Positions 4,977 through 57,947 of a stretch of 64,000 nt of DNA are shown piece by piece (position 1 is the first letter of the stretch; the number at the start of each line of letters is the position of its first letter). Origin of the DNA: Eledone cirrhosa. Its lineage: Eukaryota. Position numbers and translations under genes: made by a program. Below the pieces are notes generated by a model, which saw only the letters and a list, made by a program, of their open reading frames with translations, was not told the origin of the DNA and did no database searches. Location: positions 123,380,001 to 123,444,000 of the forward strand of contig OZ024740.1 in assembly GCA_964016885.1 (NCBI GenBank). The letters run 5' to 3'.

Positions 4977-6009
4977 ATTATCTAAATATGGATATTATTT
5001 ATTTTGATGCCACTGTTGAAGCACACAACCAAATATAAATGGCATTTAAATAATTGCACCTACATGAAAGAAAGAACAAAACGTTGCGCTTCTAAGGTTG
5101 TTATCATGGTCTAACTGGCCATTTGAATACAGGTTACTTCATTGGCTATACCAAGTTGAAAGTAATTATCAAGCAGGCTATAGCTTGAGTCAATATCTGC
5201 TCAGTTCTTGAGCCAGCTTGATTATCAAATATTGATGAGACGGAGCTAAATTATCTTACAATTTACTTCTGGGTAAGAGTTATATGTCTCATATATGACA
5301 CCACAGTGACTCTTTTTCTCCTCCTAACATTCTGGATGCAGTGGTAAATGTGAGAGTTAAGTCATTCATAGAAAAACGGGATAATATTCTAAAATACCAA
5401 GAATGACTGGCAAACTACTTTTATCAGCAATTGCCATTTGAATGTTTGGAGGTGCAGGTCCATTAACAAAGAGATAGTTGATATTGTAGGCAGCTCACCT
5501 TACATATGTAATAAGTTATGCTCATGAGGATGCTTCCTTATTCCAACACTATAGCAACACTATCACCTACAGCAATGTTGTGAATTGGCTTGCCTTAAAG
5601 ATTTGGAGTGAAATTCCAGTAGCTTTTGTTGTGGAATAGCATTGATAGGACTTGTCTTCTCCTTTTCCTTTACTATTTTATATAACTTTAAAATATATAA
5701 ATTAGAATTATTTGTATGCATTCGATTGAAATAAATCTGATACCTAATAAATACCATAAGGCATTTTGTATATTTTAATATTTTTTTTAGTTTAGAATCT
5801 CATTTGTGGAATCACAATCTTAAAGGAAGAAAACAAAAATATCTTATTTGTTTCGTTGTATGGAATCGCGATTCAGTGCGTTTTCTTGTTGGTTAGGATT
5901 GGGGTTCATTGGGGCTTGGATAATTCTAAAATTTAAAACCTTTTTATTGACACCACTGTTGACATAATATTATATATTTTTATGAAGCACATCATTACGT
6001 AAGGAATGA

Positions 6010-7045
6010 GCTCTGCGTTAGAAATGGTAGGTGTGGCGGCTATTGCTGTCTGTCGCCCGTAACATTGCTTTCCTCATCATATCCGAGGGGCGCAGCAGCT
6101 AAGCTATATCGTCTAACCAAAGGTGAAGATTCTGGAAATACCCCATTCGATCCTCTGCGCATCAGAACACGTTTATTTTATCGTTTATCATTTTCGAATA
6201 TGACAAATTCCGAATTTGCGACTCGTTTTGCGACTCCAAAAACGTTGCTTCAGCCACAAGCCCGGTCTTCCATGTCCGCAATACAGAGGAGAGAAAGATA
6301 TTTAAACACCTGGGCCTGGTCGGTCGCTTTCTGTTTGTACTTGTCTCCGTCGAGATCTCTTATGTGCTTGGTACCCGCACTGCTGGTTTCCTCCATAAAA
6401 TCAGAAAGACAGCAGCCTGGGGTGATGTGGATGTTGCAGTGGGTGACTCCCGTTATTCTCCGAGATAATGTCTTTGCCACTGAAATCAACGCCAAGACAG
6501 GAGTGCAAAGTTTTCCCCCTACTTCTTTCTTTCGTTGCTTAATTCCTTGTTTCTTTTTTAATAGTACGTTTTGTTTTTGTATGAACAGCTTAGTTACCAT
6601 TGTAAAGATAAATGAGAATGATTCCGTTATGTCTTTCTTAAACAACAAAATAATGTTTCCTTTTCTTTTGAAAACCCTAAGAAAACATTTGTCACACTAT
6701 AAAAAATACATATCATGTAAGTGTTTCATCCGAATAACAACCCTAAGACACTTCTGACCTCACCAATAGTATAGTTTAAAGTTCACTCCTATCACTAAAC
6801 TTAGCAAATCAGTAATTTTAGGATCTACGCATTTGTTGCCATATTGGAGGTATTGAGTTATTTAAATTTATATTTAAATACCCTGGAGTGACTATGTATG
6901 GAATTATATACATTCTTCAATCAAATTTGTATTGGTCACCGTTATAAATTATGAACTGTTTCTAAATAAGTAAGTTGTCATCATCTTTTTAAACATCTAC
7001 TGTGTAACTAAAACAGACATATTCTTCAGTTTTCTTTTCTTCCGT
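6010..7045. repeat. Unidentified local repeat unit U1 (GC-rich block plus AT-rich block)
   Basis: Collinear similarity to U2-U4, e.g. TTTGTACT.GTCTCCGTCG.GATCTCT, AAATACCC.GGAGT.AC, GTAAGTTGTCAT. Confidence 0.85.
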
Positions 7046-8649
7046 TTTAACGGGCGTCAGTAAATAGTTATGAGAAAATTTCAATCAGTGAAATAAAGTT
7101 TATGACTTTAGGACGATGATAATTTAAACATTTATGACAGACCTCATTCGTTAGTGTTAACATATTTTATGAAGTGAGCATTAAATACCTCCCTATGAAT
7201 ACGTTTTGTGTCACGATTTGTTCTCCGCATCCAGCCTTATCACTTCGGCTACATTTCCGGTCTCCACAGTCCGAAATGCAGAGAGAAAGGTAGTTAAAAA
7301 CCGGGGCCTGACTGACCGCTTTATTTTTGTACAGGTTTCCTTAGAGATGTTTGGTGTGCTTAGGCCCGAACTGCTGATTTCCCTCGTGAAAGACAGCGAC
7401 TCGCTTGAGGAGGCATTCTCGTGAGGTGGCGTGCCTGTTGGTACGGGTGTTTCTGGCCATTCTCCTCTTTGGTGCTTTTGTCAGTTTGTCCACGGGGCGC
7501 AGCTGAAACACCACTCGGTCTAGAATGTACTATCTGTCCCTCCCCCTCTCTTACGTTGATTGATTTCTTTTTTTTCTGTTCCTTTTTTGCATATAATAAT
7601 GTAAATAATGTGTTTTGTTTTTGTATAACAACATAATTAAGATTATTCATATAATTGAGCATTTCCTTTATGTTTTTTGAATTACAATATATTTCCCCTT
7701 TCTTTTAAAAACTCTGATAAAGATTATGTCTCTCTTTAATTACATGTAAACACTGAAAAGCACACATGTATCGCGTCGTGAGTGTCTCGTCACAATATAA
7801 CAATCCTAAAACACTTCTGGCGTCACGAAGGGTACAGATTAACGTGAGCGGCTCCCAAGACAGTTAGCAAATCAGTAATTTTACAATCTAAATAGTTGAT
7901 GCCATATTGGAGATATTGAGAGTTATAGATTTATATATAAATACCCCGGAGTAACTACCTACGGAATTACATGCTTTAATCAAAATTGTATTGCTCACCT
8001 TTATCAACTATGAACTGTTTCACAAGTAAGTAAGTTGTCATTTTTTAAACATCTCTTGTGTAACTTAAACAGACATATTCTACAGTATTTTTCCTTTTAG
8101 CCACTGTTTTCAAGGAATGAATTTGGTTTTTAAATATTTCCAAAAATATTTAGATATTTCTTTCGTATACTTACCTGACCGTTATCTGTTATTAAAACAT
8201 GTAAATTTAAAATGAAACCAAAAAGATGTTTGTTCTTTCACCAACATTTCGTTAAACATTCAGAATCTGTTACTATAAATATACGTTTCATAATATTGCA
8301 TACGTCGTTCTGAAAACTTATTTCTTTGTATGTTAAATTCTCCCGGGAATTGGTTCCACAATAGTAGTGTAGCGACTAGCGCCACCTTGCCCGGGGAGAA
8401 AAAACTAATTGGAGTTACTTTCCGTTGAATTCTAGAAGATTCCTTGAACTTCCAGTCTAGGGATTATAAAGGAGGGAGAAAAGAGACATCTTAGCTTATT
8501 TGGCGACCGGCTCTCAGATAGTTCACTCACGAGGGAGTTTGTTAACCGTATTATATCTGTATCGAATTTAATTAGTGGTTGGCCTGCAGTGGCGTTTACC
8601 AAAGTAAATAACCCTGTGACCAATTCACTAAAGAGGTGACCTCGACGTG

Positions 8650-9149
8650 ATTGTTTCAGGGAGGTGGGTGGTGCGATATGCTGAATTGCTTCTACCTTAG
8701 ATGGCAAATGACGTATACCTTCTGAATCTATAATATGTCCAAATAATCCCAGTGAATCTGTACCAAACACACATTTAGCTGGGTTGATTCTGATTTGGTA
8801 CGATTGGAGACGCAAGAGAACACACAGAAAGACGAGATAATGCGTCCGCGGGTATGTTGGCAGCTCCAGCTATATGACGAATGTCACTGGTGTACTGGGA
8901 GATGAAATCCAAATGTCTGTATGCCCTTGGAGAGTATATGTCGGACTTGGTTTGAAGAGCGAATGTGAGTGGTTTATGGTCTGTGAATACCATGAACTCC
9001 CGACCTTCAAGATGGTGGAAGTTCCGGCTAATTAGCACGTTTAATTTTTGCTGTCTTTCCTGTACTCCGTTGACCGCAAAATACGCATCAAGTTGGGCGA
9101 ACCAAAATTTGGCATCGCCAGAATACGCTGGTAACGATGTCTTGCTCAT
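8650..9149 (-). pseudogene. Gypsy gag N-terminus, RNase H and RT-thumb fragments, fused out of order
   Basis: LPAYSGDAKFWFAQLDAYF (gag); EGREFMVFTDHKPL..RHLDFISQY..IRHIAGAANIPADALSR (RNase H); INPAKCVFG...GHIIDSEGI..LPSKVEAI (RT). Confidence 0.92.
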
Positions 9150-9238
9150 GATGAAATTTGGTCGAGAGAGATGATTTTCTTTTTCAAAACGTCGGTAGAA
9201 ATTATTTATTCAAACGTCGGTCACCAGTACCACATATA

Positions 9239-9612
9239 GTACCACATCCTTATCTACGCCTACTCGTAAATCTACCTCTACTGCTGTCAGTCCGTCCTTT
9301 TTTGTGGCTGCCGCTGGAAACCAGTTTCATGCACTCCTTACTTCGTTTCCCGAGTTAACGGATATTTCATTTAACCCTACTCAGGCAGCCCACTCGACTC
9401 AACACTTCGTAACAACAATTGGTCCACCTGTTTTCTCTCGTCCACGAAGGTTGGCTCCGGATAGATTTAAAAAAGCACGAAACGAGTTCGAGCATATGCT
9501 CCAGATCGGTCTTATACGACCGTCCACCAGCCCACTGGCATCTCCGCTTCACTTGGCTCGTAAGGGTAAAGCGGATTTTAGGCCTGTGAGAGATTATCGA
9601 CGACTTAATGCC
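9239..9612 (+). pseudogene. Gypsy pol fragment (PR-RT linker and RT N-terminus)
   Basis: GPPVFSRPRRLAPDRFKKARNEFEHMLQIGLIRPSTSPLASPLHL..K...FRPVRDYRRLNA. Confidence 0.93.
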
Positions 9613-10119
9613 GGACCGTTTGGTAAACGCAGTGGCGTTTACCAAAGTAAATAACCATGTGACCAATTCACTACAGTAGTTTGTCAATGTTGTTGGAACT
9701 AACTCACGGGAGACGCAGTCGAGGAACAATTACTCGAACCATCATCGATCAACTCTCAGACGATACAAATATCCGTAGGGAGCAGCTGCCAGGAGCATTG
9801 AAACATTGAGTTGTGGTACCACTTTGTGAGGAATATTCAACTGTGGTTGCGATAATGACGATGGTGGTTAAGTTGTTATTCTGAAAACATGTAGAGGATT
9901 TGGTTGTTATATTTTAATCTGGGGCGTTCCATGTTTGTCCTCTACGCCCAATTAAGGAAGAAAAACTTATGAAGGTAATGTATTCCCAAAGCAGAATTTC
10001 TTGTAGCATGTAATTGAATATCCACGTCTTTCGAATTGTTTTCTCTGAATAATGTCCATGTTTTACCGGATTAACGATTACCACCACCAAATCGGTAGGC
10101 GTGTATGTTTAAGAAAGAA

Positions 10120-12760
10120 GCCCTACGTTTGATATGGTGACTGTGGCAGCTATCGCTAGCTGTTCTCCGTGGCAATGCTTTCGTTATTGTATCTGCGGGG
10201 CGTAGCAGCTGAACCATATCGTCTAGACAACGCTGGAGATTCTGACAACATCTCAGCCGATCCTCGGCGCATTAAAACACATTGTATCCGCGGGGCACAC
10301 AGCTGAGCCATATCGTCCAGCCAACGGTAAAGATTCCGACAACACAAGAGATAATCCTTTGCCCCTGAAAACAAATTTTATCTTTTGTCACTTTCGAGGG
10401 ATGCAAATCCCGAATTCGGGATGCAAGGGCTGTGACTCTTTCACGGCGCCAACCTTATCACTTTGGCTAAAAGCCCGGGCGTTGCTGTCTGCAAGCAAGG
10501 GAATTAAAGATAGTTAAATGCCGGAGCCTGATCGACCGTTTTCTCTTTGTACTGGTCTCCGTCGGGATCTCTGTTTGCTTCGTCCCCGCCCTGCTGATTT
10601 CCTCCCTAAAGTCAGAAAGATAGCAGCCCGGATGAGAAAGGACCCCCCCCCCCCGCCAGGTGACCTGGATGTTGCAGTAGGTGTCTCGTTACTCTCAACT
10701 GTAACGTTTCACATAGCGCAGCTGACACAACGCTTAGACAGCGGTCAGTGTGTCTTCCCTACTCTCTTTCTTTCCTTGCTTAATTCTTTTTTTTTTTTTA
10801 CTTTTTCTTCCTTTATATAAACAGCGGGTGGAGGCCGAAAGGGTCCACGGTGGATCCGCTGCGACATTGGTGTGGCTCGCAGATCCGGAGGCCGAGCCTC
10901 AAGGAAACGCCAATGTACAGGCTATTATTGTCTAGTTGCGTGACAGTGGAGAAGGGCAGGGCATGGAGCCACTGTGAGTTTCGGAGGCCGGACGAAAACA
11001 GGCAAGGCGGTGCTGGTCGAGCTGGCGCGTAGGCCTGTCTGAGGCCAGGCTGCACTGGATGGCATCGTAAATGCTTTGGGGGGAGGGGGGTGACATAAAC
11101 AGGGGCATGAGGAGGAGGGACGTCTACTGTGCTGAGTCCCAGCTGGTCCCACGTCTCGCAGGCGGCCTCACGTTCTCTGAACACAGAGGGTTCTATTGTT
11201 TTGGAGAACCCTGCTGACGAGGATGCGGCACGAGGTTACCGACGAAAGATACGCCGGCAAAGCCAGTGAGATCGGGAACCGGAGGCCATGGCCGCCTTAC
11301 CTGAGAGGTAAGATGTGTGAGTGTAGCACGAAGCGCTGCGAAGGGTATAGAGGAGCTTCGGCATGGCGAAGCAGTTCCTCAACAGAAAGAGGGCTAGGTG
11401 GCCGTCGATCAAGCCCAGTCGGCTCGTGAGAGTCTGGAGTTGTTGAAGCCTGGACCTGATGGTGGCGCCGATGACCGGCGGGTGGATCGGTGACCCGAGG
11501 ATAAGGACATCCTCTTTAGGGGTGACCTGTACCTGGTGGAGAATGGGCCGCACGTCCGAGACGGATGCTGCAAAGCTCTCACCACCTCCGACTTAGCTGA
11601 GTTGACCTGGAGGCCGATTAACCTGGGTTCTGCTGCACGTCGGGCTGAGAAGGCTAAACTCCTCAAATACCTGTCGCTCTCCGACAGGTTTGCGGTTGTA
11701 CCCCTGGCAGTGGAGACTTCTTGTGTCCTTGACCCTAGGGCTACCTCCCTACTCACCACCATAGGCGCTAAGCTGGCCAGCCGCAGGTGTGATTTTTCCA
11801 GCGCGTCTCCCTTTCTGTCCTCCGGGGAAACGCCTTTCTCCATTCTGACCGCCGGGGCTGGAGCGGAGCCCGATCGCGTATCATTCCATATTTAGTTGTG
11901 GTCAGTGTGTGTGTGTTTGTATATATTGCTTTTGTTTTCATTCAGCATCATGTCATTCTTCATTGCTTTTCTCTACTAATGAATTATATTTGGAAAAATA
12001 AAATAATCTGTAGCTACCATTGTAAATAGAATTGAGAATGTTTCCGTTATTTCATTCTGAAATTAGAGTGTTTCGTCACATTAACAATTCTGACGTCACC
12101 AATAATACAGTCTCGCGTCAATTCCTTCAACGAAAGTTACGAAATCATTAAGTTTACCGTCGAAGTATTTGTTGTCTCAACGGAGGTATTGAGAGATATA
12201 AATTTATATATAAATACCCTGGAGTAACATTCTACGGAATTACATTTTTTAATCCGATTTGTAATGCTCACAGTTATCAAGTGTGAACTGTTTCTCAATA
12301 AGTAAGTTGTCATCTTCTTAAACATCTCTTGTGTAACCAAAACAGAGATATTTTACAGTGTTTTTGTTTTACTTTTAGCCACTCTTTTCATGGAACCTAT
12401 TTGGTTTTGATATATTTAAAAATATATTTCCTTCGTTTGCTTACCTATACATTTTCTTTTATCAAATTATGTATGTTCGTTCACCAAGATCTCGGGAAAC
12501 ATTCAGATTCTTTTATTTAAAAACATACGTTTCATAATGTTTTACATGTAGTTCCCTAAAGTTATTTGTCTGTCTGTTAAAATTGATATTCTGGAAAAAC
12601 TGGAGAGGGTGTTGTATTTTAATTTGGGGTTTTCCATTTTTGTCGGTTGGGCCAACTTTAGGAAGCAAAATTTATGAAAGTCATTTGTCCCACAGCAGAA
12701 TTTCATGTAGCATGTAATTGAATACGCACGTCTCTCGAATTATTTTCTCTGATGAATTCT
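10120..12760. repeat. Repeat unit U3, interrupted at ~10826-12008 by a CRE-like element
   Basis: Collinear with U1; U1 AACAGC/TTAGTTACCATTGTAAA is split here by the insertion; internal ~90-bp duplication at ~10187-10345. Confidence 0.85.
10826..12008. mobile_element. CRE-clade-like (restriction-like endonuclease) non-LTR retrotransposon, 5'-truncated with inverted 5' part
   Basis: Plus ~11625-11790: GSAARRAEKAKLLKYLSL..FAVVPLAVET, then 3' UTR and an A-rich end. Minus ~10826-11625: GLQVNSAKSEV, LLRNCFAMPKLLYTLRS, WLHALP..QLDNNSLYIGVSLRLG..ICEPHQC..VDPFGLHPL. Confidence 0.85.
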
Positions 12761-13529: not shown

Positions 13530-14445
13530 ATGAGTCCTGGGGGCAGTCCTCAAGCACGCTTTCCAGTGGGTGCTGTCAGAAACAACCGTCTCCAATTGAT
13601 CCAGATTGATAGCCAAGCGAGACCAGCCGTGCTCATGGATGTTGTCTAACCAACTTGTTCGGAGTCTAACACTGGGTCTGTTGTCGGTTGGTTTTTCCCG
13701 TAAGATATGTCTAGCTATTCGTTTGTAGTTATATATATTATAACTACACATTCGTAATATCGGAGCTGTCATCACTCAATTCGGAGATGTAGCGGTCTTC
13801 TTGGAACAATTATCTGGTCTCGGGACTACATATTCTATCAAGTAACATTGCTCCCACGACCCTTCGGAAGAAACCCATTCCGGCCACTTTTATTACCCAA
13901 GATTCATGACCAGGGATAAGGTTGACCCGAATAAAGAATTGAAGATGAGTTTAGCTTTTATACCCACCACCCCTCTTCTGGTGGCGGATGGCTGCAGCTC
14001 GCTTATTACTGCAGCCCACCTGCAATTCTTGCACTTATTCAGCCTCACAAAGTCAATAACTCGTGAACACAGCCTCGAGAGCTTCAACGTCTCCACCAGT
14101 TTTAGTGGAAATCCACTCACACGTGATGTGCATTGTGTAGGCTTCCTAGCGTGCATATCATACCTGCCGTGTATCTCACGCCATCAAACCTATTAAGTGC
14201 ATGACAAAGATCACCTACAGACGAGTTAAGTAGAACCATGGCATCAGCAAATTCCAGTCGACTGTTCCTACACACTACTGTCTTGATACCAATTCCAGCC
14301 CGGCTGCGCAATTCAATCCTGCCCATAAAGATTATGAATAGAGGACGTGAAAATACGCACCTTTGGCAGAGTCCGACACCCACATTGAATGGTTTTGATA
14401 TAGCACCATTTATCGGAACAAATATACAACAGCATTTGTATTTAG
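13530..14445 (-). mobile_element. RTE-clade LINE (Rex3/Expander-like), decayed 3' portion
   Basis: VGVGLCQRCVFSRPLFIIFMGRI..SRLEFADAMVLLNSS..DL (RT core); RPSVRLRTSWLDNI..GWSRLAI..LETVVSD..W (C-terminus). Confidence 0.82.
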
Positions 14446-14694
14446 ACATGTATGTGAGAAGGAGAGTCTGCGTTTTACCGTTATTTTTTACGTCTTTGTC
14501 TTATCCGCCCCATTTTGACTATATATATATATATATTCTAACCCCAAATCTAGCCCAATCCCCACTAACCACCCTAACCTTCGTGAAGTACGGTTAACCA
14601 AAAAACGAATTTTCATCGGTTTTAAAAGTCAGATTTATTGAAATAGCAAAGAAAACTCCGTGAATTAGTTTCCATTTTCTAAAAGGAAGATTTG

Positions 14695-15017
14695 GAGGTC
14701 TGATGAAAGAACCTAGAGAAACGTCTCCCCGAACGGCAGACGGATGTTTTTCTATAAATTTACCTATATATTTACCGATAATGAACTGCTTTTGAATATG
14801 TATAAGTTGTCATCTTTTGAAAATCTCTTGTTCAGCCAAAACAGACATGTTTTACAATGTTTTTCCCGTTTAGCCACCATTTTCAAGAAATATATTTGGT
14901 ATGAAATATATTGAGATATTTAATTATTTCTGCTTTAACTAATTTGTGAGTTTTTTGTTATCAAAATGTTTAAGTGAACAACAAAAGCAATTATTAAACC
15001 TTGAAAATAATTTCCTA
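14695..15017. repeat. Repeat unit U4 partial (duplicated at ~15846-16168; resumes ~19056-19285 after the Penelope insertion)
   Basis: ATGAACTG..TAAGTTGTCATC..ATCTCTTG..AAAACAGACAT..TTTAGCCAC matches U2/U3; 19056-19285 matches ~8283-8340 plus 9866-10080. Confidence 0.7.
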
Positions 15018-15095
15018 TATATATATATATATATATATGAAATTGAAAAAGTGAACAATAACATGGTCAACAGTATAAACAAGGAAATTTCTTTA

Positions 15096-15201
15096 CAGTC
15101 TAACAATTGTTTCTATGATAGAGTTGTGTAAAAATTGCTAAACACTGAAGTTAGTGTCAATTTAAAAGACATGCAACCTCCATCATTTCGTCAGAGAACT
15201 G
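15096..15201 (-). ncRNA. Type I hammerhead ribozyme of the Penelope-like element (duplicated copy)
   Basis: Minus: CAGTTCT-CTGACGA-aATGATGGAGGTTG...CAACTCTATCATa-GAAA-CAATTG-TT-AGACTG. Intact core, long stem II, palindromic minimal stem III, stem I with one bulge. Confidence 0.75.
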
Positions 15202-16246
15202 AGAAAAAATACAAAATATATGCGTAACGGTAAATTTATAAATTCAAATTACTACATCAATAATAATATTAATAATAAAGATATAGAGAGAAATAAATGA
15301 AGGGGGACAGATGGAAAAGAGGGGGAAAAAGAACAACGAAAGAGAAAACGAAAATACAGTTAAATGCAAATTCCGGCAAAATTACGAAATCAAACTATCA
15401 CATCAAAATAAAGATAATATTAATAATTGTTTCTACTTTTTGGCACAAGGCCAGCAATTACCCAGTGCATTACTGGTACTTTATTTTTGAATAGAGGACG
15501 TGAAAATACGCACCTTTGGCAGAGTCCGACACCCACATTGAATGGTTTTGATATAGCACCATTTATCGGAACAAATATACAACAGCATTTGTATTTAGAC
15601 ATGTATGTGAGAAGGAGAGTCTGCGTTTTACCGTTATTTTTTACGTCTTTGTCTTATCCGCCCCATTTTGACTATATATATATATATATTCTAACCCCAA
15701 ATCTAGCCCAATCCCCACTAACCACTCTAACCTTCGTGAAGTACGGTTAACCAAAAAACGAATTTTCATCGGTTTTAAAAGTCAGATTTATTGAAATAGC
15801 AAAGAAAACTCCGTGAATTAGTTTCCATTTTCTAAAAGGAAGATTTGGAGGTCTGATGAAAGAACCTAGAGAAACGTCTCCCCGAACGGCAGACGGATGT
15901 TTTTCTATAAATTTACCTATATATTTACCGATAATGAACTGCTTTTGAATATGTATAAGTTGTCATCTTTTGAAAATCTCTTGTTCAGCCAAAACAGACA
16001 TGTTTTACAATGTTTTTCCCGTTTAGCCACCATTTTCAAGAAATATATTTGGTATGAAATATATTGAGATATTTAATTATTTCTGCTTTAACTAATTTGT
16101 GAGTTTTTTGTTATCAAAATGTTTAAGTGAACAACAAAAGCAATTATTAAACCTTGAAAATAATTTCCTATATATATATATATATATATGAAATTGAAAA
16201 AGTGAACAATAACATGGTCAACAGTATAAACAAGGAAATTTCTTTA

Positions 16247-16352
16247 CAGTCTAACAATTGTTTCTATGATAGAGTTGTGTAAAAATTGCTAAACACTGAA
16301 GTTAGTGTCAATTTAAAAGACATGCAACCTCCATCATTTCGTCAGAGAACTG
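16247..16352 (-). ncRNA. Type I hammerhead ribozyme of the Penelope-like element
   Basis: Same sequence as 15096-15201; same strand as and 3' of the PLE ORF. Confidence 0.75.
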
Positions 16353-16578
16353 AGAAAAAATACAAAATATATGCGTAACGGTAAATTTATAAATTCAAAT
16401 TACTACATCAATAATAATATTAATAATAAAGATATAGAGAGAAATAAATGAAGGGGGACAGATGGAAAAGAGGGGGAAAAAGAGCAACGAAAGAGAAAAC
16501 GAAAATACAGTTAAATGCAAATTCCGGCAAAATTACGAAATCAAACTATCACATCAAAATAAAGATAATATTAATAAT

Positions 16579-32097: not shown

Positions 32098-35032
32098 TAT
32101 CATCATCATCATTTTACGTCCGCATTTGCCTGCTTGGGCTGGACCGGTCCTATTCAGCACAGCATCTCTCCACTTGTCACAGTCCTTCATCATCTCCTCG
32201 GTGAGTTTCAGTAATCTGAGGTCTGCTCTCACCACCTCCGCCCATGTTGTTTTTAGGTCTACCTCTACTGCGTCTTCCTTCTACTGGGATTTCTTGGCAC
32301 TTCTTTACCCAGCGGTCATGCTCCATGCGCATTATATATCTATACCATCTCAGCCTACTCTTCTGCACACTACAACTTATCCCTCTTATATCCAGTTTCT
32401 TTCTCAACTCGTCCATGCTCGGTCGTTCACACACATTGACATTGCACATCCAAACCTAGCATACTTGCTTCATTTCTCTCCAGCTGTTGCATATCCTCTG
32501 CTGTTGCTGCCTATGTCTCACTACCATGCAGCATCGCTCATCTCACGCAGGCATCATATAACTCTCCTTTCATATAACTCTCCTTTCATATGCAGGGAGA
32601 AACCCTTCTTTGTCAACAAAGGAAGCAGCTCCCTAAACTTCTCCCAACCCGTCCTTATTCTAGATACTATGGCCTTGGAACACCCCTTCCCATGCTAATC
32701 TGATCTCCTAGGTACCGGAAGCTATCAACCACTTCTATAGAGCCTACCTGCATTGGAAAAAATGTGTCTATCACTGAAATTAATACTGCCAACTTTCCCT
32801 GTAAATCAACTGCATACATAGTGTTCCCTACCTGTTAGTTTGCCTGCTATCCCACTACATCACTTGTGTACCCAAGATCAGCATTGCGTACATTTAATGG
32901 AATTTATGTCAGTACCTTTCCTACATATCGAACATGGCCATTTCCCTGATGGAATCGGAGTATTGTCCTATCTTCTACTTATCAACACTTTTGTCTTAGC
33001 TATGGTCACTCTCAGTCCTCTTGATTCCAACTGCTGTTTCCATAGCCAGAATTTATTCTCTAGCTCCTCTACTGATTCTGCTATAAGAGCCAGATCATCA
33101 GCATAGAGAAGTTCCCATGGGCATCCAGTCTTAAACTCCTCTGTTATGGCTTGGAGGACTATAATGAACAAGAGCGGGCAGAGGACCAAAACCTGATGTA
33201 CACCTACTTGTATCTGGAATTCCTCACTAAACTCCATACCTACTCTCATTTTACTGAGAGCATCCCTGTACATAGCTTGCACCCCTGTACATAGCTTGCA
33301 CTGCCCTCACAAGCCATTCCTCTACACCTAGTTTCCTTAGGTACCAGCAGATGACAGATTGGGGTACCCTATCAAAAACCTTCTCTACGTCAACAGAAGC
33401 TAAGTATAGTGGCTTATTCTTCTCTAGGAACTTCTCTTGTAGTTGCCTCACTAAGAAGAGAGCATCTGTTGTACTTTTCCGAGACACAAAACCAAACTGC
33501 ATCTCATCTAATTTGACTCTTTCTCTAATCAGTTGCGCTAATATTCTCTCTGACACTTTCATAACCAGATCCATCAGCTTTATGCCCTATAGTTGCTCCT
33601 CTCTAGAGAATTCCCTTTACCTTTGTAGCAATTTATGAGAATACTGCTGCACCATTCTTTGGGTATGACACCACCATATATAGCTTGATTAATGATGCGT
33701 GCAACTAGTTTACTGCTTACTTCTCCTGATGCGTTCAGCATCTCAGCAACTATCCCTGACGGTCCAGCAGCCTTACCATTCTTTATTTCCTTAATTGCCT
33801 CTTGTACCCTATATTTGTCAATCTCAATAGCTTGTCCCTCTGTCGGGTCTACTAGGGGTAATTTCTCTCTGTCTCATTCGTTCTCCACATTTATCAGTCT
33901 CTCATAATGACATTTCCAGGCCTCCTTTTTTTGATCATTCATGACACTAAGTACATTGGCATCATTCCAGACACACTTATCTCCAACAACATCCTGATTT
34001 GCACTGACACACTGCCTTGCAATGCGGAACACCGCACGTCTCTGATCTTCCCGTCGCAAACATTGGCAAATCTCCTACTCTCAGCCTCCCTGCGTGCTAA
34101 GTACACCTGACGTCCGGCTTCTCTTTTAGTGGCTGTGTATCCTTCTCTACTCCCACCGTTTTTCCAAGCCTTCCATGCCAGTCTTTTGTCTCTAATGGCC
34201 CTATCTACCGTGCTGTTCCATCACCAGGTCACTCTCTGTCTGGTTGAAGCTCTGCCCCAACCACAAGTTCATTAAGTAGCCTGCAGTAAGTTGTCACGCA
34301 AGAAATTCCAGTTATCATCTATGTCATACAACTCTAAATCTTCTTTTTTTTCATCTTACACATCTTGAAGAGTTTTGCTAAATTTATATTTTAATGAAAG
34401 GTATTTTAGCTTCCAGACCTTTCTTTTCCACACCTTCCTGTATGTCTCATTCTTTCTCTTGCTTACTAATGATGTCATTAACGACTAACCTATGCTGTGG
34501 GGTACATTCTTCCCTGGGGTATGCCTTAGTATTTGACACCATCTGTCTGTCACGCTGTCTAACGAGCAGGAGGTCAATCTGGCTTGTGTGCTCGCCTGAT
34601 TTGTAGGTTATTAGGTGGTTAGTAGTCTTCTGGAAGTTAGTGTTGCAAATGGTTAGTGCATGTGCATCACAAAATTCAAGAAGCCTCACTCTTTCATTTC
34701 TTGAGCCATAACTGTGCCCACCATGTACCCCAGTGTATCCATCTTGGAGCTGTCCAACATGTCCATTGAAGTCCCCCGCTAGCATATCGATGTCTCAGTC
34801 CTCTGTCATTGAGGCTGTTTGTAAAAGTTGCTCATAAAAACAGTCTTTCTCTTCTTTACCTAGGCCTGCCTGGGGAGCATAGGCAGAGATGATTGTCAGT
34901 AGTCTCTTGCCTACAACTAATCTAAGCTTAATTCTATTACTAACTCTAACTACCTCTATTGTCTTATTGATCCATCTCTCAGCCAGTAATATGCCCACCC
35001 CACCTAAACCATCATCATTACCCACCCAGAAT
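32098..35032 (-). mobile_element. RTE-clade LINE, near-complete disrupted ORF, nested in the CR1-like element
   Basis: APE motifs GVGIL, IISAYAPQ, AGDFNGHVG, SQID; RT ELLYADDLALIA; 3' tail GCGGACGTAAAATGATGATGATG. Confidence 0.95.
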
Positions 35033-49989: not shown

Positions 49990-52900
49990 ATCAGCGATCA
50001 AGTAAACGTAGATGAGATGCAATTTGGTTTTGAGTAGGCTGGAGATATGACTGATGCAAACTTCCTTGTTTAATAATTGCAGGAGAAGTATGTAGCTAAG
50101 AGTAAGCCCCTTTACCCTGCATTCAGTGATATAGAAAAGGATTTTGACAGAAAGCCTTGCTCCATAACCTGGTTGGATCATTGGAAACTGAAGTTAAATA
50201 AGTGGCTTGTGAAGGCTATACAAGCTATTTACAAAGAAAGCAGTCAGAAAAGTGAGTTTGCAATAAAATGACCACCATGGCTCTGTTCATATCCCCCTTT
50301 TGTTATAGTCCTCAAGGACACGACGGGGAAGTTTAAGACTGGCATAATGCATGCATGATGGCCTAGTTAAATTCCCTGTGGAATTAGAGAAATTTCAGGC
50401 CTGGAAGCAAAGTCTGAAATCAAAAGGTCTCAGATATTCCTAGCCAAAAATAAAATCATATTAAGTTAAAAATTTGGCAGAACTCTGATACCACCAGAGA
50501 AATGACCATGCTCAATATTCAAAAAAGAAGCTGGTTGAAATTGTATATAGTTCTTCCTATATTCTGTAAAGGAAGACCTGAGAAAACTTAGTGATGAAGT
50601 GATAAAAGTTGACCTTGTCCAATTAAACCACACAAAGGAGATGGCACAGGATCGAGACCTCGTGTCATTCTGTACTGTAGAATAATCATCCACCACCACG
50701 TACACAAAGTGAAATGAAACTGCTGATTCAATAATCTGTATCGACTTCCGTCTAGAAGGGGGGGGGGGGTAAACTGTACCTTGTGGGTCCTTGGCTTCAT
50801 CGTTAACGATTTTCGGCTAAAAATCTGCTCGGAGGTGATGTAGTGACCTACATTCCGCGGGCTCACATACATTCTCTGTGCGTGATTTGGCTCAGCTCAG
50901 CCAATCAGCGCCAGGAGAAGAGGATGTATCCCTACTCGTTCTGAGAGAGAAATAGCCCGCGTAGATTTGAGAAATCAAAGACTCGCAGCTTGACCATACT
51001 AAGGTAAACACCACTTGTTCTTTTGCTCCGTAAGCACACAAAATATGTAACAACAAAACATTCCTACGGGCCTGGCCAAACGCCTCAGCCAGTCGACCGT
51101 ATTTTCTCTTGTAATCTTAATTGAATTATTTCATTTCTCTTGGCAGGCCAGCTTAATTCAGTTCTTAACCTTTGTTAATAAATTATGTAAAAACAAGCTA
51201 AAGTCGTTGTCGATATTCCTATCATATCTTTCTACCAAACCTGGTTCCTCGTGGCAACATTACAACTCTCTGAATATAACTCCCTGTTAAATTGGTGACC
51301 CTCGACGATTAAGTATGAAAACGCAGCCTATTTGAATTCGCCATTCGTTTTAATGGCTATGTGGAGTGGCTTAACATTTGGAATTTTCGAATCGTGTAGC
51401 TAGACTCACTTAGCGTAAGTCCATACAATTCATAATATTCCATTTGTTGAAGCACGCGGCCTGCACAATATTTCTGTCATAACTTTCATGGTAACACTAG
51501 TAACTCACGCATACAGACGAACACAAAAATACAACAAAAAAAAAATTAATTAAAAAAAAAGTATTTCTCTGGATGTGGAATATTGCTTTCGGCGTTCTGT
51601 TGAAATTACAAATGGAGACTCAGAAATTTTGTTTTCCCGCGTACAGCTTGCCTTCTCCAATCCCAGCTGTCTGATTGGCTGCATCGTACCACATGACGGC
51701 TTCTTCATCACAGACGCATTTTTAAATCGGCCATCTTGGATTTTTGTGCCGAATAATTTTCATGGAAAACAATTTTTTTTTATTATTCAAATTTTCTTTA
51801 GAATATTTTAGAAATAAAAGAAAAAATTAGCAGTATTTCAAAAACTTTTCGCCACGAGGAAATTTCAAAACGGCTATCACCAAGTACCAGACATCAGCAG
51901 CAACACATGGCTAACTATTAACCAACACCAGGGAACGGCTTGTAACTTGACCGACGCAACCACCATACCTTCTGTCTCGTTACCACAAGGACTCGAGAAA
52001 TTAAGACATTAGCTTTCTCACCATTATGGCGTCAGACGTGGCTGCCATGTTGGTGAGGCTAGGTTCTTCAACGCTCGACTTCTACTCTACAGAAGATTCA
52101 TTGTGACTTTGCTTTAACATCAACAACAACTCTACTAGCTCCCTAGTAAGAGAGTTCCCAAAGAAAATAGAAGCGAACTTTTTGTTAAAAGAAAAGAAAC
52201 AATTCTTTCTTTCTTCCTTTTTTTTCAGGCATTTATTTTGGACATTTATTTATTTTTTTTAAACTGTATTATATGAAAATTCATTTCTCTCTATCATTGT
52301 ATATGTGACCGCAGGCACACATTTTCTTTGCTGTATTACATGCCTGCATATATACACACACCAACATGTTGTTGTGTATGGTATGCGATCTTCAAGAGTC
52401 GTAATATTCTGCGAGGTCTCTTTTCACCTTCTAGAGTTACCAAAACATGCTATTGACACTTGCAGCTTAATTCACCTGCATCGCAACACGAGAATGCTAA
52501 TTGCAGCTGAACTCAAACAGTTTCGCATCTCGTTGCACATTCATCGTCCATAACAACCTCTATCGTGTTATCTTACCCAACTCACCGGGAGAACAACAAA
52601 TAGAACTGGACTTGTCAGCATTTCCACCACTTCTGTGGATTCGCCCGAATTGTGGGACTGCAACCCACCTACAGATTCAGCTTGCTTTTTTTCTTATCAA
52701 AGCAACCAGCCATTTTTTCCTGGCTCCCTAGCACATTCAGCAATACATCTGGGAGGCCAACATTTTCTCGCCTACCCATCTTCTTGCCAGCACTGGTAAA
52801 CTATCATAATAGCTTCGTCCACAGCTACTGGTACAACTCTTACCATTAACATTTAATGCAAGAACAGCAACTTCGCCCATGTCAGACTTTATCTGTTTTC

Positions 52901-54133
52901 TGTTAGACCTTTGGTGGTCACGTATAAACTATAAAACAGCTAGTCATTTGACAGTGGCTCAACACGGCCCGTAGCGCCTCATTTTTTTTCTTGCATGCAT
53001 CTTTCTGCTCAATTATTTGTTCACGTCGGGTTCACCAATTTAGCAGGGATTTATATTCAGAGAGTTGTAATGTTGCCACGAGGAACCAGGTTTGGTAGAA
53101 AGATATGATAGGAATATCGACAACGACTTTAGCTTGTTTTTACATAATTTATTAATAAAGGTTAAGAAGTGAATTAAGCTGGCCTGCCAATAGAAATGAA
53201 ATAATTCAATTAAGATTACAAGAGAAAATACGGTCGACTGGCTGAGGCGTTTGGCCAGGCCCGTAGGAATGTTTTGTTGTTACATATTTTGTGTGCTTAC
53301 GGAGCAAAAGAACAAGTGGTGTTTACCTTAGCATGGTCAAGCTGCGAGTCTTTGATTTCTCAAATCTACGCGGGCTATTTCTCTCTCAGAACGAGTAGGG
53401 ATACATCCTCTTCTCCTGGCGCTGATTGGCTGAGCTGAGCCAAATCACGCACAGAGAATGCATGTGAGCCCGCAGAATGTAGGTCACTACAAAACAAACA
53501 GGTAGGGGAGACACTAGCCTGCAGCAATGCGCCATACCCTACCTAACTTAATACCTCGATCACACCTATATATCCCATGCACCTAATCAATGTCAAACTC
53601 ACTCACCTGTCCCCCCCCCCCCACCGCACCAACAGTCATGATACACCTCACCTGCCCAGGCTATGAAAGCTAGACACACTTGACATCTTACCTCCAACAA
53701 AACCATGACAAAACACAAAATCTGTAATGTATGCTGATCTGGCAGCACAAAAACAAAATCACCCAATCCTTCCTGTAAAGTGATGGTGCTGGTGACATGA
53801 CAAAGCGCCTAGTCCAAATTGCAAGATGGTTGTGTTGGTGACACAACAAAAACACCCAGTCCACTTTGTAAAGTGGTGATGCTGGTGATTTGACAAAAAG
53901 TGCCCTGTTCACCCTTAAAGGTGATTGTTTTGGTGCTACAATGAAAAAAAACACTCAGTCCACACTGCAAAGTACTTGGTGTTACAAAGGACATCCAGCC
54001 ATAGAATCCAAGGCAAAATACAAATAAATATGAGCAAACAGTTATCTCTGAACCTGACTTGTTTCATAATGTGACTACCCATCTAACCAATGCAAGCATG
54101 GAAAATAGACATTAAACGACAATGATGATGATG
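49990..54133 (+). mobile_element. Old internally deleted RTE LINE split by LTR copy B (49990-50720 and 53492-54133)
   Basis: DEMQFGF, LQEKYVAKSKPLYPAFSDIEKDFDR before the insertion; ~43-bp UTR repeats (53690-53990) and (GAT)n tail after it, matching the layout of 41300-42041. Confidence 0.82.
50721..53491. mobile_element. Non-autonomous LTR element copy B with inverted LTRs and AAAC TSD
   Basis: AAAC at 50717-50720 and 53492-53495; 3'-internal piece 50721-50838; LTR(+) 50839-51291; PBS from 51293; internal to ~53024; tRNA-Trp-like 53021-53037; LTR(-) 53039-53491. Confidence 0.92.
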
Positions 54134-55729: not shown

Positions 55730-57947
55730 ATGACAAGATGAGATTTTTAGATCTACAGCTAATAAATGGAATTTCTTACGTGACAACTTGCTGCAGGCTA
55801 CTGATGAAACTTGTTGCTGGAGCAGAGCTCCAACCAGACAGAGAGTGACCTGGTGGTAGAACAGAACAGTAGATAAGGCCATTAGAGACAAAAGACTAGC
55901 ATGGAAGGCTTGGAAAAAGGGTGGGAGTAAGGGAGAATATACAGCCACTAAGAGAGAAGCTAGACGTCAGGTGTACTTAGCACGCAGGGAGGCGGAGAGT
56001 AGGAGGTTTGCAAATGTTCTGCGATGGGAAGATCAGAGGCGTGCGGTGTTCCACATTGCAAGGCAGTGTGTCAATGCAAATCAGGATGTTGTTGGAGATA
56101 AATGTGTCCGGGATGATACCGGTGTACTTAGTGTCACGAATGATCAGAAAAAGGAGGCCTGGAAATGTCATTATGAGAGACTGATGAATGCGGAGAACGA
56201 ATGGGAGAGAGAGAAATTACCCTTAGTAGATCCGACAGAGGGACCAGCTATTGAGATTGACGAATATAGGGTCCAAGAGGCGATTAGGGAAATGAAAAAT
56301 GGTAAGGCTGCCGGACCATCGGGAATAGTTGCTGAGATGCTGAAGGCATCAGGGGACGTAGGCACTAAACTGGTTGCAGGCATCATCAATCAGGCTATGT
56401 ATGGTGGTGTCATACCCAAAGACTGGTGCAGCAGTATTCTCATAAATTGCTACAAAGGTAAAGGGGATGCTCTGGAGAGGAGCAATTATAGGGGTATAAA
56501 ACTGATAGAACAGGTTATGAAAGTGGCAGAAAGGATATTAGCACAACTAATTAGAGAAAGGGTCAAACTAGATGAGATGCAGTTTGGTTTTGTGCCTGGG
56601 AAGAGTACAACAAATGCCTCTTCCTGGTGAGACAATTGCAAGAGAGGTTCTTAGAGAAAAATAAGCCACTATACTTAGCCTTTGTTGACCTAGAGAAGGC
56701 CTTTGATAGGGTACCCTGATCTGTCATCTGGTGGTCCCTAAGGAAGCTAGGTGTTGAGGAATGGCTTGTGAGGACAGTACAAACTTTGTACAGAGATACT
56801 CTCAGTAAAGTCAAGGTAGGAATGGAGTTTAGTGAGAAATTCCAGATACAAGTAGGTGTACATCAGTGTTCGGTCCTCAGCCTGCTCTTGTTCATTATAG
56901 TCCTCCAAGCCATAACAGAGGAGTTTAAGACTGGCTGTCCATGGGAACTTCTTTATGCTGACGATCTGGATGTTATAGCAGAATCAGAAGAAGAGCTAGA
57001 GAATAAATTCTGGCTATGGAAACAGCAGTTGGAAGCAAGAGGACTGAGAGTGAACCTAGCTAAGACAAAAGAGTTGATGAGTAGAAAAGAGGACAAAACC
57101 CTGATTCCGTCAGGGAAATGGCCATGTTCGATATGCAGAAAAGGAACTGGCATAAATTCTATAAAATGCACACAATGCAGATCCTGGGTACACAAGAGAT
57201 GTAGCAGGATAGCAGGTAAACTAACAGGTAGGGAGAAATATGTATGCAGTAGATGTACAGGGAAATTAGACAGTAGAAGTCGCATTGATAGACACATTTT
57301 TCAAATGCAGGAGGGCGCTATAGAAGTGGTGGATAGCTTCCGGTACCTAGGAGATCAGATTAGCATGGGAAGAGGGTGTTTTCCGAGGCCATAGTATCTA
57401 GAATAAGGACGCGTTGGAAGAAGTTTAGGGAGCTGCTTCCTCCGTTGACGAAGAAGGGTTTTTCCCTGCGTACTAAAAGCCAGTTGTATGATGCCTGTGT
57501 GAGGAGCGCGATGCTGCATGGTAGTGAGACATGGGCAGCAACTGCAGAGGATATGCGACGGCTGGATAGAAATGAGGCAAGCATGTTCCGTTGGATGTGC
57601 AGTGTAAATGTCCGTGAACGACCCAGCATAAATGTGTTGAGAGAGAAACTGTGTCTGAGAGGGATAGAATGTAGTGTACGGGAGAGGAGACTGAGGTGGT
57701 CTGGACATGTGATGCGCATGGAGGATGACTGATGGGTGAAGAAGTGCCAGGAAATGCTAGTTGAAGGAAGACGTGGTAGAGGTAGACCACGAAAAACATG
57801 GGCGGAGGTGGTGAGAACAGACCTCAGATCATTGAAGCTCACGTTGGAGATGACGAAGGACCGTGATAAGTGGAGAGATGCTGTACTGAATAAGACCCGT
57901 CCCACCCTTGCAAGCAGGGAAAAGCGGACGTAAAATGATGATGATGA
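55730..57947 (+). mobile_element. RTE-clade LINE, 5'-truncated; same family as 32098-35032
   Basis: ORFs 55971-56630, 56768-57394 (ELLYADDL), 57376-57732, 57736-57933; tail GCGGACGTAAAATGATGATGATGA. Confidence 0.95.

Follow-up and report, generated by a model that had tools for sequence, protein, structure and literature searches.

The window analysed here, a 64,000-nucleotide stretch of the Eledone cirrhosa genome (contig OZ024740.1, positions 123,380,001–123,444,000), contains a Gypsy copy of 1,308 bp at 8368–9675 that begins with TG and ends with CA (9674–9675). GTAG is present at both borders of the element (8364–8367 and 9676–9679; chance of a 4-bp match, ~0.005), which confirms the TG..CA ends and 4-bp target-site duplication (TSD) claimed in a sequence-only reading of the window. 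The start at 8368 was also set independently by reads of the family, which have loose ends at this position in 28 X1 contigs and 119 X5 reads. A 4-bp TSD was found by eye in 20 of the 21 relatives with a resolvable long terminal repeat (LTR) start (31 two-LTR loci were surveyed and 10 unresolved rows left out). The left LTR is full length (265 bp; 8368–8632, plus strand) and carries TATAAA at 8465 and AGTAAA at 8603; its inner end is AA rather than CA, which corrects an earlier note. At the right end, where the last ~47 bp of the LTR had been proposed, we find exactly the final 47 nt (9629–9675, plus strand), ending in CA and differing at 2 positions from 8586–8632. The left LTR is followed, after a 1-nt spacer, by an 18-nt primer-binding site (PBS) of the tRNA-Trp type (8634–8651, plus strand), the 3′ end of which is the first junction. 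This PBS matches that of one relative (L007) at 17 of 18 nt, the mismatch being nt 1, and the surrounding sequence (8611–8662) gave a weak match to Rfam RSV_PBS (E = 1.1). The fetched loci contain 74 PBS-like contexts, some of them duplicates or chance matches; 11 had the full 18-nt form and 8 had T at position 9, as in the left PBS. Searches of the window yielded no tRNA gene and no second copy of the element.

Between the two LTR portions, the top strand consists of the PBS, three minus-strand segments (B, C and D), a 10-nt duplication, one plus-strand segment (E) and a 12-nt fold-back, and all pieces have the order and orientation previously stated. Segment B (8652–8812, minus strand) encodes the C-terminal thumb region of the reverse transcriptase (RT), matching amino acids 370–425 of the protein P0004 (8812→8645; E = 1e-18), and family contigs leave the window sequence at 8812. 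Segment C (8806–9022, minus strand; a family contig leaves at 9022) encodes the C-terminal half of RNase H and the start of a linker (9035→8808 against P0004 amino acids 546–622; E = 6e-32). Segment D (9027–9226, minus strand; family contigs cover 9027–9221) contains a second PBS, a 5′ untranslated region (UTR) with repeat units of ~25 nt and the gag N terminus (9137→9048 against P0009 amino acids 5–34; E = 2e-6); the gag piece also matched Pfam DUF7041 under the cut-off (E = 0.002). The second PBS, which had been placed at ~9215–9226 on the minus strand, is indeed present, inverted and imperfect, and begins at PBS nt 1 (9226). Because it is imperfect and family contigs suggest similar UTR repeat units at 9221, this landmark is weakened, its first 5 nt carrying the argument. 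Segment E (9236–9620, plus strand; contigs start at 9236) spans the end of the protease, a linker and the RT N terminus, with 9238–9612 corresponding to P0004 amino acids 133–257, and a few codons appear to be missing near 9613, judging from the proteins of relatives.

The native order of these pieces was obtained by mapping them on P0004, P0009 and three intact relatives (L019, L033 and L038): counted from the PBS, D lies at 0–250 nt, E at ~1230–1600, B at ~1940–2105 and C at ~2490–2700. Deletions and the second PBS apart, no fewer than three inversions separate the observed order from the native one, which rules out a simple deletion with one inversion. In total, ~1.3 kb of a roughly 4.5-kb element is retained. 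Gypsy-type gag, protease, RT and RNase H sequences are present as fragments only, and the four translated pieces contain no stop codons. The copy lacks the integrase (no integrase match was found within the window), the polypurine tract (PPT), the catalytic RT core and the CHCC motif. The layout of an autonomous element (protease–RT–RNase H–integrase order, two full LTRs and a PPT) is absent, given the scrambled order and the 47-nt right LTR; 8368–9675 is thus a defective, dead Gypsy copy and not an autonomous element. Compared with the family contigs of greatest depth among those listed, the copy differs at 3 of 145 and at 6 of 123 nt (2–5%); together with the 2 of 47 positions that distinguish the LTR tips, this indicates that it is not fresh, and the contig differences leave time for later events.

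The nearest named sequence is P0009 (Octopus sinensis LOC115218783), to which the pol pieces are 55–81% identical, and for the forward coding piece the closest proteins with a name belong to O. sinensis and O. bimaculoides. In a ranking of 79 long proteins that had been selected by piece E, P0004 and/or P0009 came first for all four pieces, and segment scores correlated weakly across relatives (rho 0.12–0.28). On this protein-level comparison the pieces are likely to derive from one lineage, a single subfamily not being proven, and an origin from different Gypsy families, which was to be checked, is not supported. Reported features of CsRn1 elements are a tRNA-Trp PBS, a 4-bp TSD and a CHCC-type Gag (PMC2582038), and the clade was recorded in 9 of 12 cephalopods (PMC6238403). 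On the basis of its PBS, TSD and relatives, the copy appears to be a CsRn1-like Ty3/Gypsy element. It shares the tRNA-Trp-type PBS, the 4-bp TSD and a DUF7041-like gag start with the clade (CsRn1, Kabuki and PwRn1), and differs from it in the scrambled order and orientation and in the small portion kept. The CHCC motif was detected in 2 of 10 relatives checked (P0077 and P0111) and not in the P0009 model; the gag of the copy lacks that region.

A second Gypsy element inserted in reverse within a first one, with both eroded by deletions, would account for the two PBSs in opposite orientation, for the entirely minus-strand B–C–D block and for the differences between the LTR tips. The inner joints, however, carry no second LTR, LTR tip or TSD; RNase H precedes the RT thumb within the minus-strand block, an order that deletion cannot produce; and the four pieces occupy non-overlapping stretches of the polyprotein and have their best relatives in common. 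We therefore regard nested insertion as very unlikely.

The host unit around the element is locally duplicated in tandem. Given that the paralogous unit (12083–12752) aligns continuously across 7810–8337 and 9870–10048, with which it is collinear, 8338–9869 is inserted DNA. Within it, the Gypsy copy sits inside a piece (roughly 216 bp) of a different repeat, and the two halves of this piece form an 85% hairpin with each other across the Gypsy TSD. A neighbouring insert (~10816–11892) also appears to be internally inverted.

Junction borders were defined as the positions at which family contigs leave the window sequence. About five internal junctions had been claimed; we observe five junction zones, with more joints inside them. 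The extra joints comprise the 10-nt duplication, the 12-nt fold-back, a 4-nt filler and two inferred micro-deletions, located in the second PBS/UTR and near 9613. At junction 1, the crossover between the 18-nt PBS and the inverted RT thumb lies within 8650–8653. At junction 2, contigs of segment C reach down to 8806 and those of B up to 8812, so that the two segments have a 7-nt microhomology in common (8806–8812; chance of at least 7 nt, ~4e-4). Junction 3 contains 4 nt from neither neighbour (9023–9026), as gag contigs end at 9027 and the RNase H contig at 9022, and the gag and RNase H pieces share one frame across it. Junction 4 is a templated direct duplication, with 9226–9235 (plus strand) repeating 9238–9247 and segment E starting at 9236; of 300 shuffles, 6 produced a repeat of this type at any position in the element. 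Junction 5 is a perfect 12-nt fold-back copy (9619–9630, minus strand) of LTR positions 9635–9646 with a 4-nt loop, an arrangement found in 0 of 300 shuffles (hairpin z = −4.0). For junctions 4 and 5, we estimate microhomologies of ~1–2 nt.

One read-derived contig (X1 record 7; 185 nt, depth 11.1) spans 9578–9762 without differences and thereby covers junction 5, the LTR tip, the right TSD and flanking DNA, at a depth like that of contigs from the unique flank (10.3–12). Junction 5 and the right TSD therefore exist at the read level and as a single copy. The X1 sample may be the assembly's own source. No read-derived contig spans junctions 1–4 among the matches listed (24 of 1,792 pieces). 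The multicopy nature of the family (summed contig depth of hundreds to thousands, against ~10–12 for the unique flank), this lack of spanning contigs among those listed and the possible use of sample S1 as the source of the assembly would all be compatible with a high-copy repeat having become chimeric in assembly or amplification. The faultless contig across the right border speaks against such a chimera, and misassembly would not be expected to yield an exact TSD, flanks that pair and scars at the level of single bases; we consider this explanation highly improbable. There is no sign that the scrambled form has spread: the right junction is at single-copy depth and neither a gag–RNase H fusion protein nor any protein carrying the gag piece was found among the 120 listed of 312 matches. 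The RAD reads (X5) showed no sign of the junctions, and with 649 of 654 aligned only partly and sparse coverage they provide no evidence. Compared with an amplified TRIM- or LARD-like form, the copy lacks a PPT and a second full LTR, besides having its right junction at single-copy depth.

Junction 1 had been interpreted as microhomology-driven, with the tRNA-like end overlapping the antisense of the RT motif KQLRR (KQSRR in the window; CAATCACGTCG). This argument proved circular and was rejected: what was cited is the PBS itself in minus-strand reading, and such an overlap cannot bear witness to homology in an intact RT. Leucine occupies the corresponding codon in 82 of 84 relatives and serine in the window, indicating that the window serine is PBS-derived and that the PBS extends to at least 8649. 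Comparison of the RT codons of 86 distant relatives with 8 PBS-antisense bases gave 0–6 matches, mostly 2–4 and never 7, and the corresponding motif in the closest relatives is RQLRQF or RQLRHF. A KQLRR-encoded microhomology at junction 1 is possible. Searches for intact DNA of the same family with LTR patterns gave 0 matches in metagenome_contigs, genome_contigs and viral_contigs. The 127 fetched loci are distant relatives (25 blastn matches, 68–84% over 43–146 nt, none of them to the LTR), P0004 identified 1 distant locus in viral_contigs, and none of 10 candidates for longer proteins containing the RT-thumb piece was significant.

We next consider when the scrambling took place. The host-anchored left LTR portion ends at most 2 nt from PBS nt 18, and PBS nt 1 is where segment D starts. 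Reverse-transcription intermediates naturally have their 3′ ends at these positions, and the two ends should have paired with each other; such breakpoints thus favour an origin before integration. The chance of two PBS-end landmarks among 10–12 breakpoints is 0.001–0.006, a post hoc value for landmarks chosen by the analyst. All identified pieces are element-derived, and one breakpoint lies merely 47 nt from the right end, yet the flanks are collinear with the paralogous unit and pair with each other across the TSD. Taken together, the two breakpoints at RT intermediates, the duplicated PBS, the clade-typical 4-bp TSD and the undisturbed flanks favour pre-integration timing, and we consider it probable that the copy was scrambled by template switching during reverse transcription. 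Rearrangement of the cDNA before integration, as originally proposed, is therefore the best-supported reading, whereas the KQLRR homology offered in its support was not borne out. The 4-bp TSD is the integrase signature of the clade, and the scrambled product was likely inserted by the integrase of its family.

The main competing explanation is that an intact copy integrated first and that a chromosomal break arising inside it later was mended by template switching at microhomologies or by end joining of the polymerase-theta type, a process that may have captured cDNA pieces of the active family. The 7-nt microhomology, the 4-nt filler, the 10-nt duplication and the 12-nt fold-back match scars formed at DNA breaks; at chromosomal breaks, fold-backs are described along with short duplications of templated origin and inverted insertions showing microhomology (PMC11724301), and their strand polarity is the same. 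Those insertions resemble the present copy in their small scars, whereas the pieces here are 160–385 nt long and all derived from the element. Repair would also leave the ends and TSD in place, the copy is old enough for it (2–5% from family contigs), and the neighbouring insert is seemingly inverted inside. Repair, however, gives no reason for breaks at nt 18 and nt 1 of the PBS, or for a second PBS; no host DNA was identified inside the element and its flanks are intact. Break and rejoining alone would be insufficient because the PBS is present twice, and a post-insertion route would need at least three inversions, deletions and a copy of the PBS. Repair after insertion is accordingly judged unlikely.

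Template switching before integration could have proceeded in six steps. First, a tRNA-primed minus strand would have copied 47 nt of the LTR, halted, folded back and primed itself for ~10 nt; the loop of the fold-back is still that of the native plus strand, as would suit a bottom strand that was extended from the right LTR tip towards the interior. Complete strong-stop DNA was rejected as the identity of the 47-nt piece, given that TATAAA at 8465 suggests a transcription start near 8493. The strand would then have switched to RT-coding RNA, copying ~385 nt towards the protease (step 2), and slipped, copying 10 nt again (step 3). In step 4, it would have switched to a completed minus strand at its 3′ end (PBS nt 1), this strand likely coming from a second packaged genome, and copied PBS, UTR and gag in the sense direction. 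[quoted passage not shown] Given that both LTR tips survive, integration would be workable with enzymes supplied in trans. That minus-strand strong-stop DNA can prime itself is known, which is a precedent for this reverse-transcription path; self-primed products are described as dead ends that were not detected in HIV particles, which counts against it. The order, the orientation and the boundaries of the pieces were observed, as were the 7-nt overlap, the fold-back, the duplication and the TSD. We infer the order of the jumps, the use of two templates, the pre-integration timing and the making of the joints by RT or a host end-joining polymerase.

The last of these leads to a variant in which host alternative end joining (alt-EJ; polymerase theta), and not the RT of the element alone, would have joined plus-strand strong-stop DNA to the wrong partner in a failed second strand transfer, leaving the snap-back and templated-duplication scars; we regard it as distinctly unlikely. 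In a preprint on the Drosophila element HMS-Beagle, alt-EJ is reported to be needed for second-strand synthesis and is proposed to act through PBS homology (bioRxiv 10.1101/2022.09.25.509424). That work places alt-EJ at the PBS joint, which corresponds to junction 1 here. Auto-integration by integrase is a further source of inverted internal segments in LTR elements, and work on SISYPHUS and Ty1 reports inversion circles as common (PMC7197481). An inversion circle that later entered the genome is extremely improbable here and was rejected, as the map of the junctions contradicts it: in auto-integration, LTR tips become joined to sites inside the element, as in the SISYPHUS/Ty1 circles, whereas the Gypsy copy is a linear insertion with a host TSD in which both tips face host DNA and no inner joint holds an LTR tip.

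Template switching during reverse transcription has its closest parallels in HIV-1. In PMC9278108, asymmetric LTRs were recorded in 26 of 88 proviruses, for the most part with the 5′ LTR intact and the 3′ LTR truncated; two had inversions, and a two-genome model of reverse transcription was proposed for such defective proviruses. The Gypsy copy resembles them in being integrated with an intact 5′ LTR, a truncated 3′ LTR and internal inversion and deletion, so the error process may be regarded, by analogy, as already known in kind, with the copy a striking example of it. It differs from the HIV-1 cases in being a Gypsy element in an animal genome, with five junction zones within 1.3 kb, a PBS that occurs twice and joints that lie where strong-stop DNA ends; within an incomplete coverage of the literature, we found no description of a Gypsy insertion combining so many switches with joints at PBS ends.

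The copy is one non-coding relic, with no evidence of function, and its value lies in being an unusually legible trace of failed reverse transcription in an animal genome. Its LTR promoter would face antisense RT, RNase H and gag pieces, which makes it a putative source of small RNAs. The copy also suggests a screen for scrambled LTR copies with intact TSDs and breakpoints clustering at PBS ends, which would bear on the respective roles of RT and host alt-EJ. If the alt-EJ reading is true, such copies would form a genome-wide record of alt-EJ in the cDNA synthesis of mollusc LTR elements, beyond Drosophila. If the pre-integration timing is true, Gypsy integrase inserts even heavily scrambled cDNA, provided that both LTR tips survive.

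The scrambled Gypsy copy (8368–9675) is enclosed by an approximately 216-bp fragment of another multicopy repeat (8337–8363 and 9680–9866), itself bracketed by GTTAA at 8332–8336 and 9867–9871. Within this fragment, contig depth is approximately 1000 at 9706–9817, and a 20-bp hairpin (85%) spans the Gypsy target site. The window also contains an old, tandemly repeated unit of host sequence, present about three times (approximately 5960–7050, 7150–8340 plus 9870–10800 in two parts, and 12010–12750; mutual identity of 67–85%); a 264-amino-acid open frame in this unit (5963–6754) had no match in a Pfam search.

On the minus strand of the Gypsy copy, a single 144-codon open frame (8778–9209) joins the gag and RNase H pieces through junction 3, the joint between these two inverted pieces (9023–9026). 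No gag–RNase H fusion was found among the 120 matches listed, of 312, when related proteins were searched, and the shared frame is probably due to chance (1 in 3).

Approximately 1 kb from the Gypsy copy lies a GC-rich insert (10816–11892) with open frames at 11592–11239 and 11235–10816 on the minus strand and 11494–11892 on the plus strand. Judged on motifs, we take it to resemble a CRE/SLACS-type non-LTR element, in which the post-RT region is presumably inverted relative to the restriction-like endonuclease piece. A Pfam search with its frames yielded no match, and the best ESM Atlas matches were unnamed eukaryotic clusters (0.95); on this tentative reading, the insert looks like a second retro-insert with an internal inversion. 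Elsewhere in the window, we observed a near-perfect tandem duplication of approximately 1.15 kb (14332–15317 versus 15485–16468; 99–100% identity) and LINE-like copies in inverted pairs (32127–34320 and 55757–57916; 46–2360 and 50782–53491), which share 81–98% identity and lie 21–52 kb apart.

Among the fetched loci with distant Gypsy relatives, 46 (L082–L127) are on contigs classed as bacterial or archaeal, either from genomes or from metagenome-assembled genomes, probably reflecting eukaryotic host contamination. Several intact CsRn1-like relatives (within L012–L115; for example, L033 and L088) end both LTRs in TA, not CA, but still have perfect 4-bp TSDs. The related Octopus sinensis protein P0002 (LOC115212164) lacks a few RT residues following the YRRxNA motif, the same residues that appear to be missing from the window copy near 9613; this gap suggests either a site prone to deletion or a defective source common to both.
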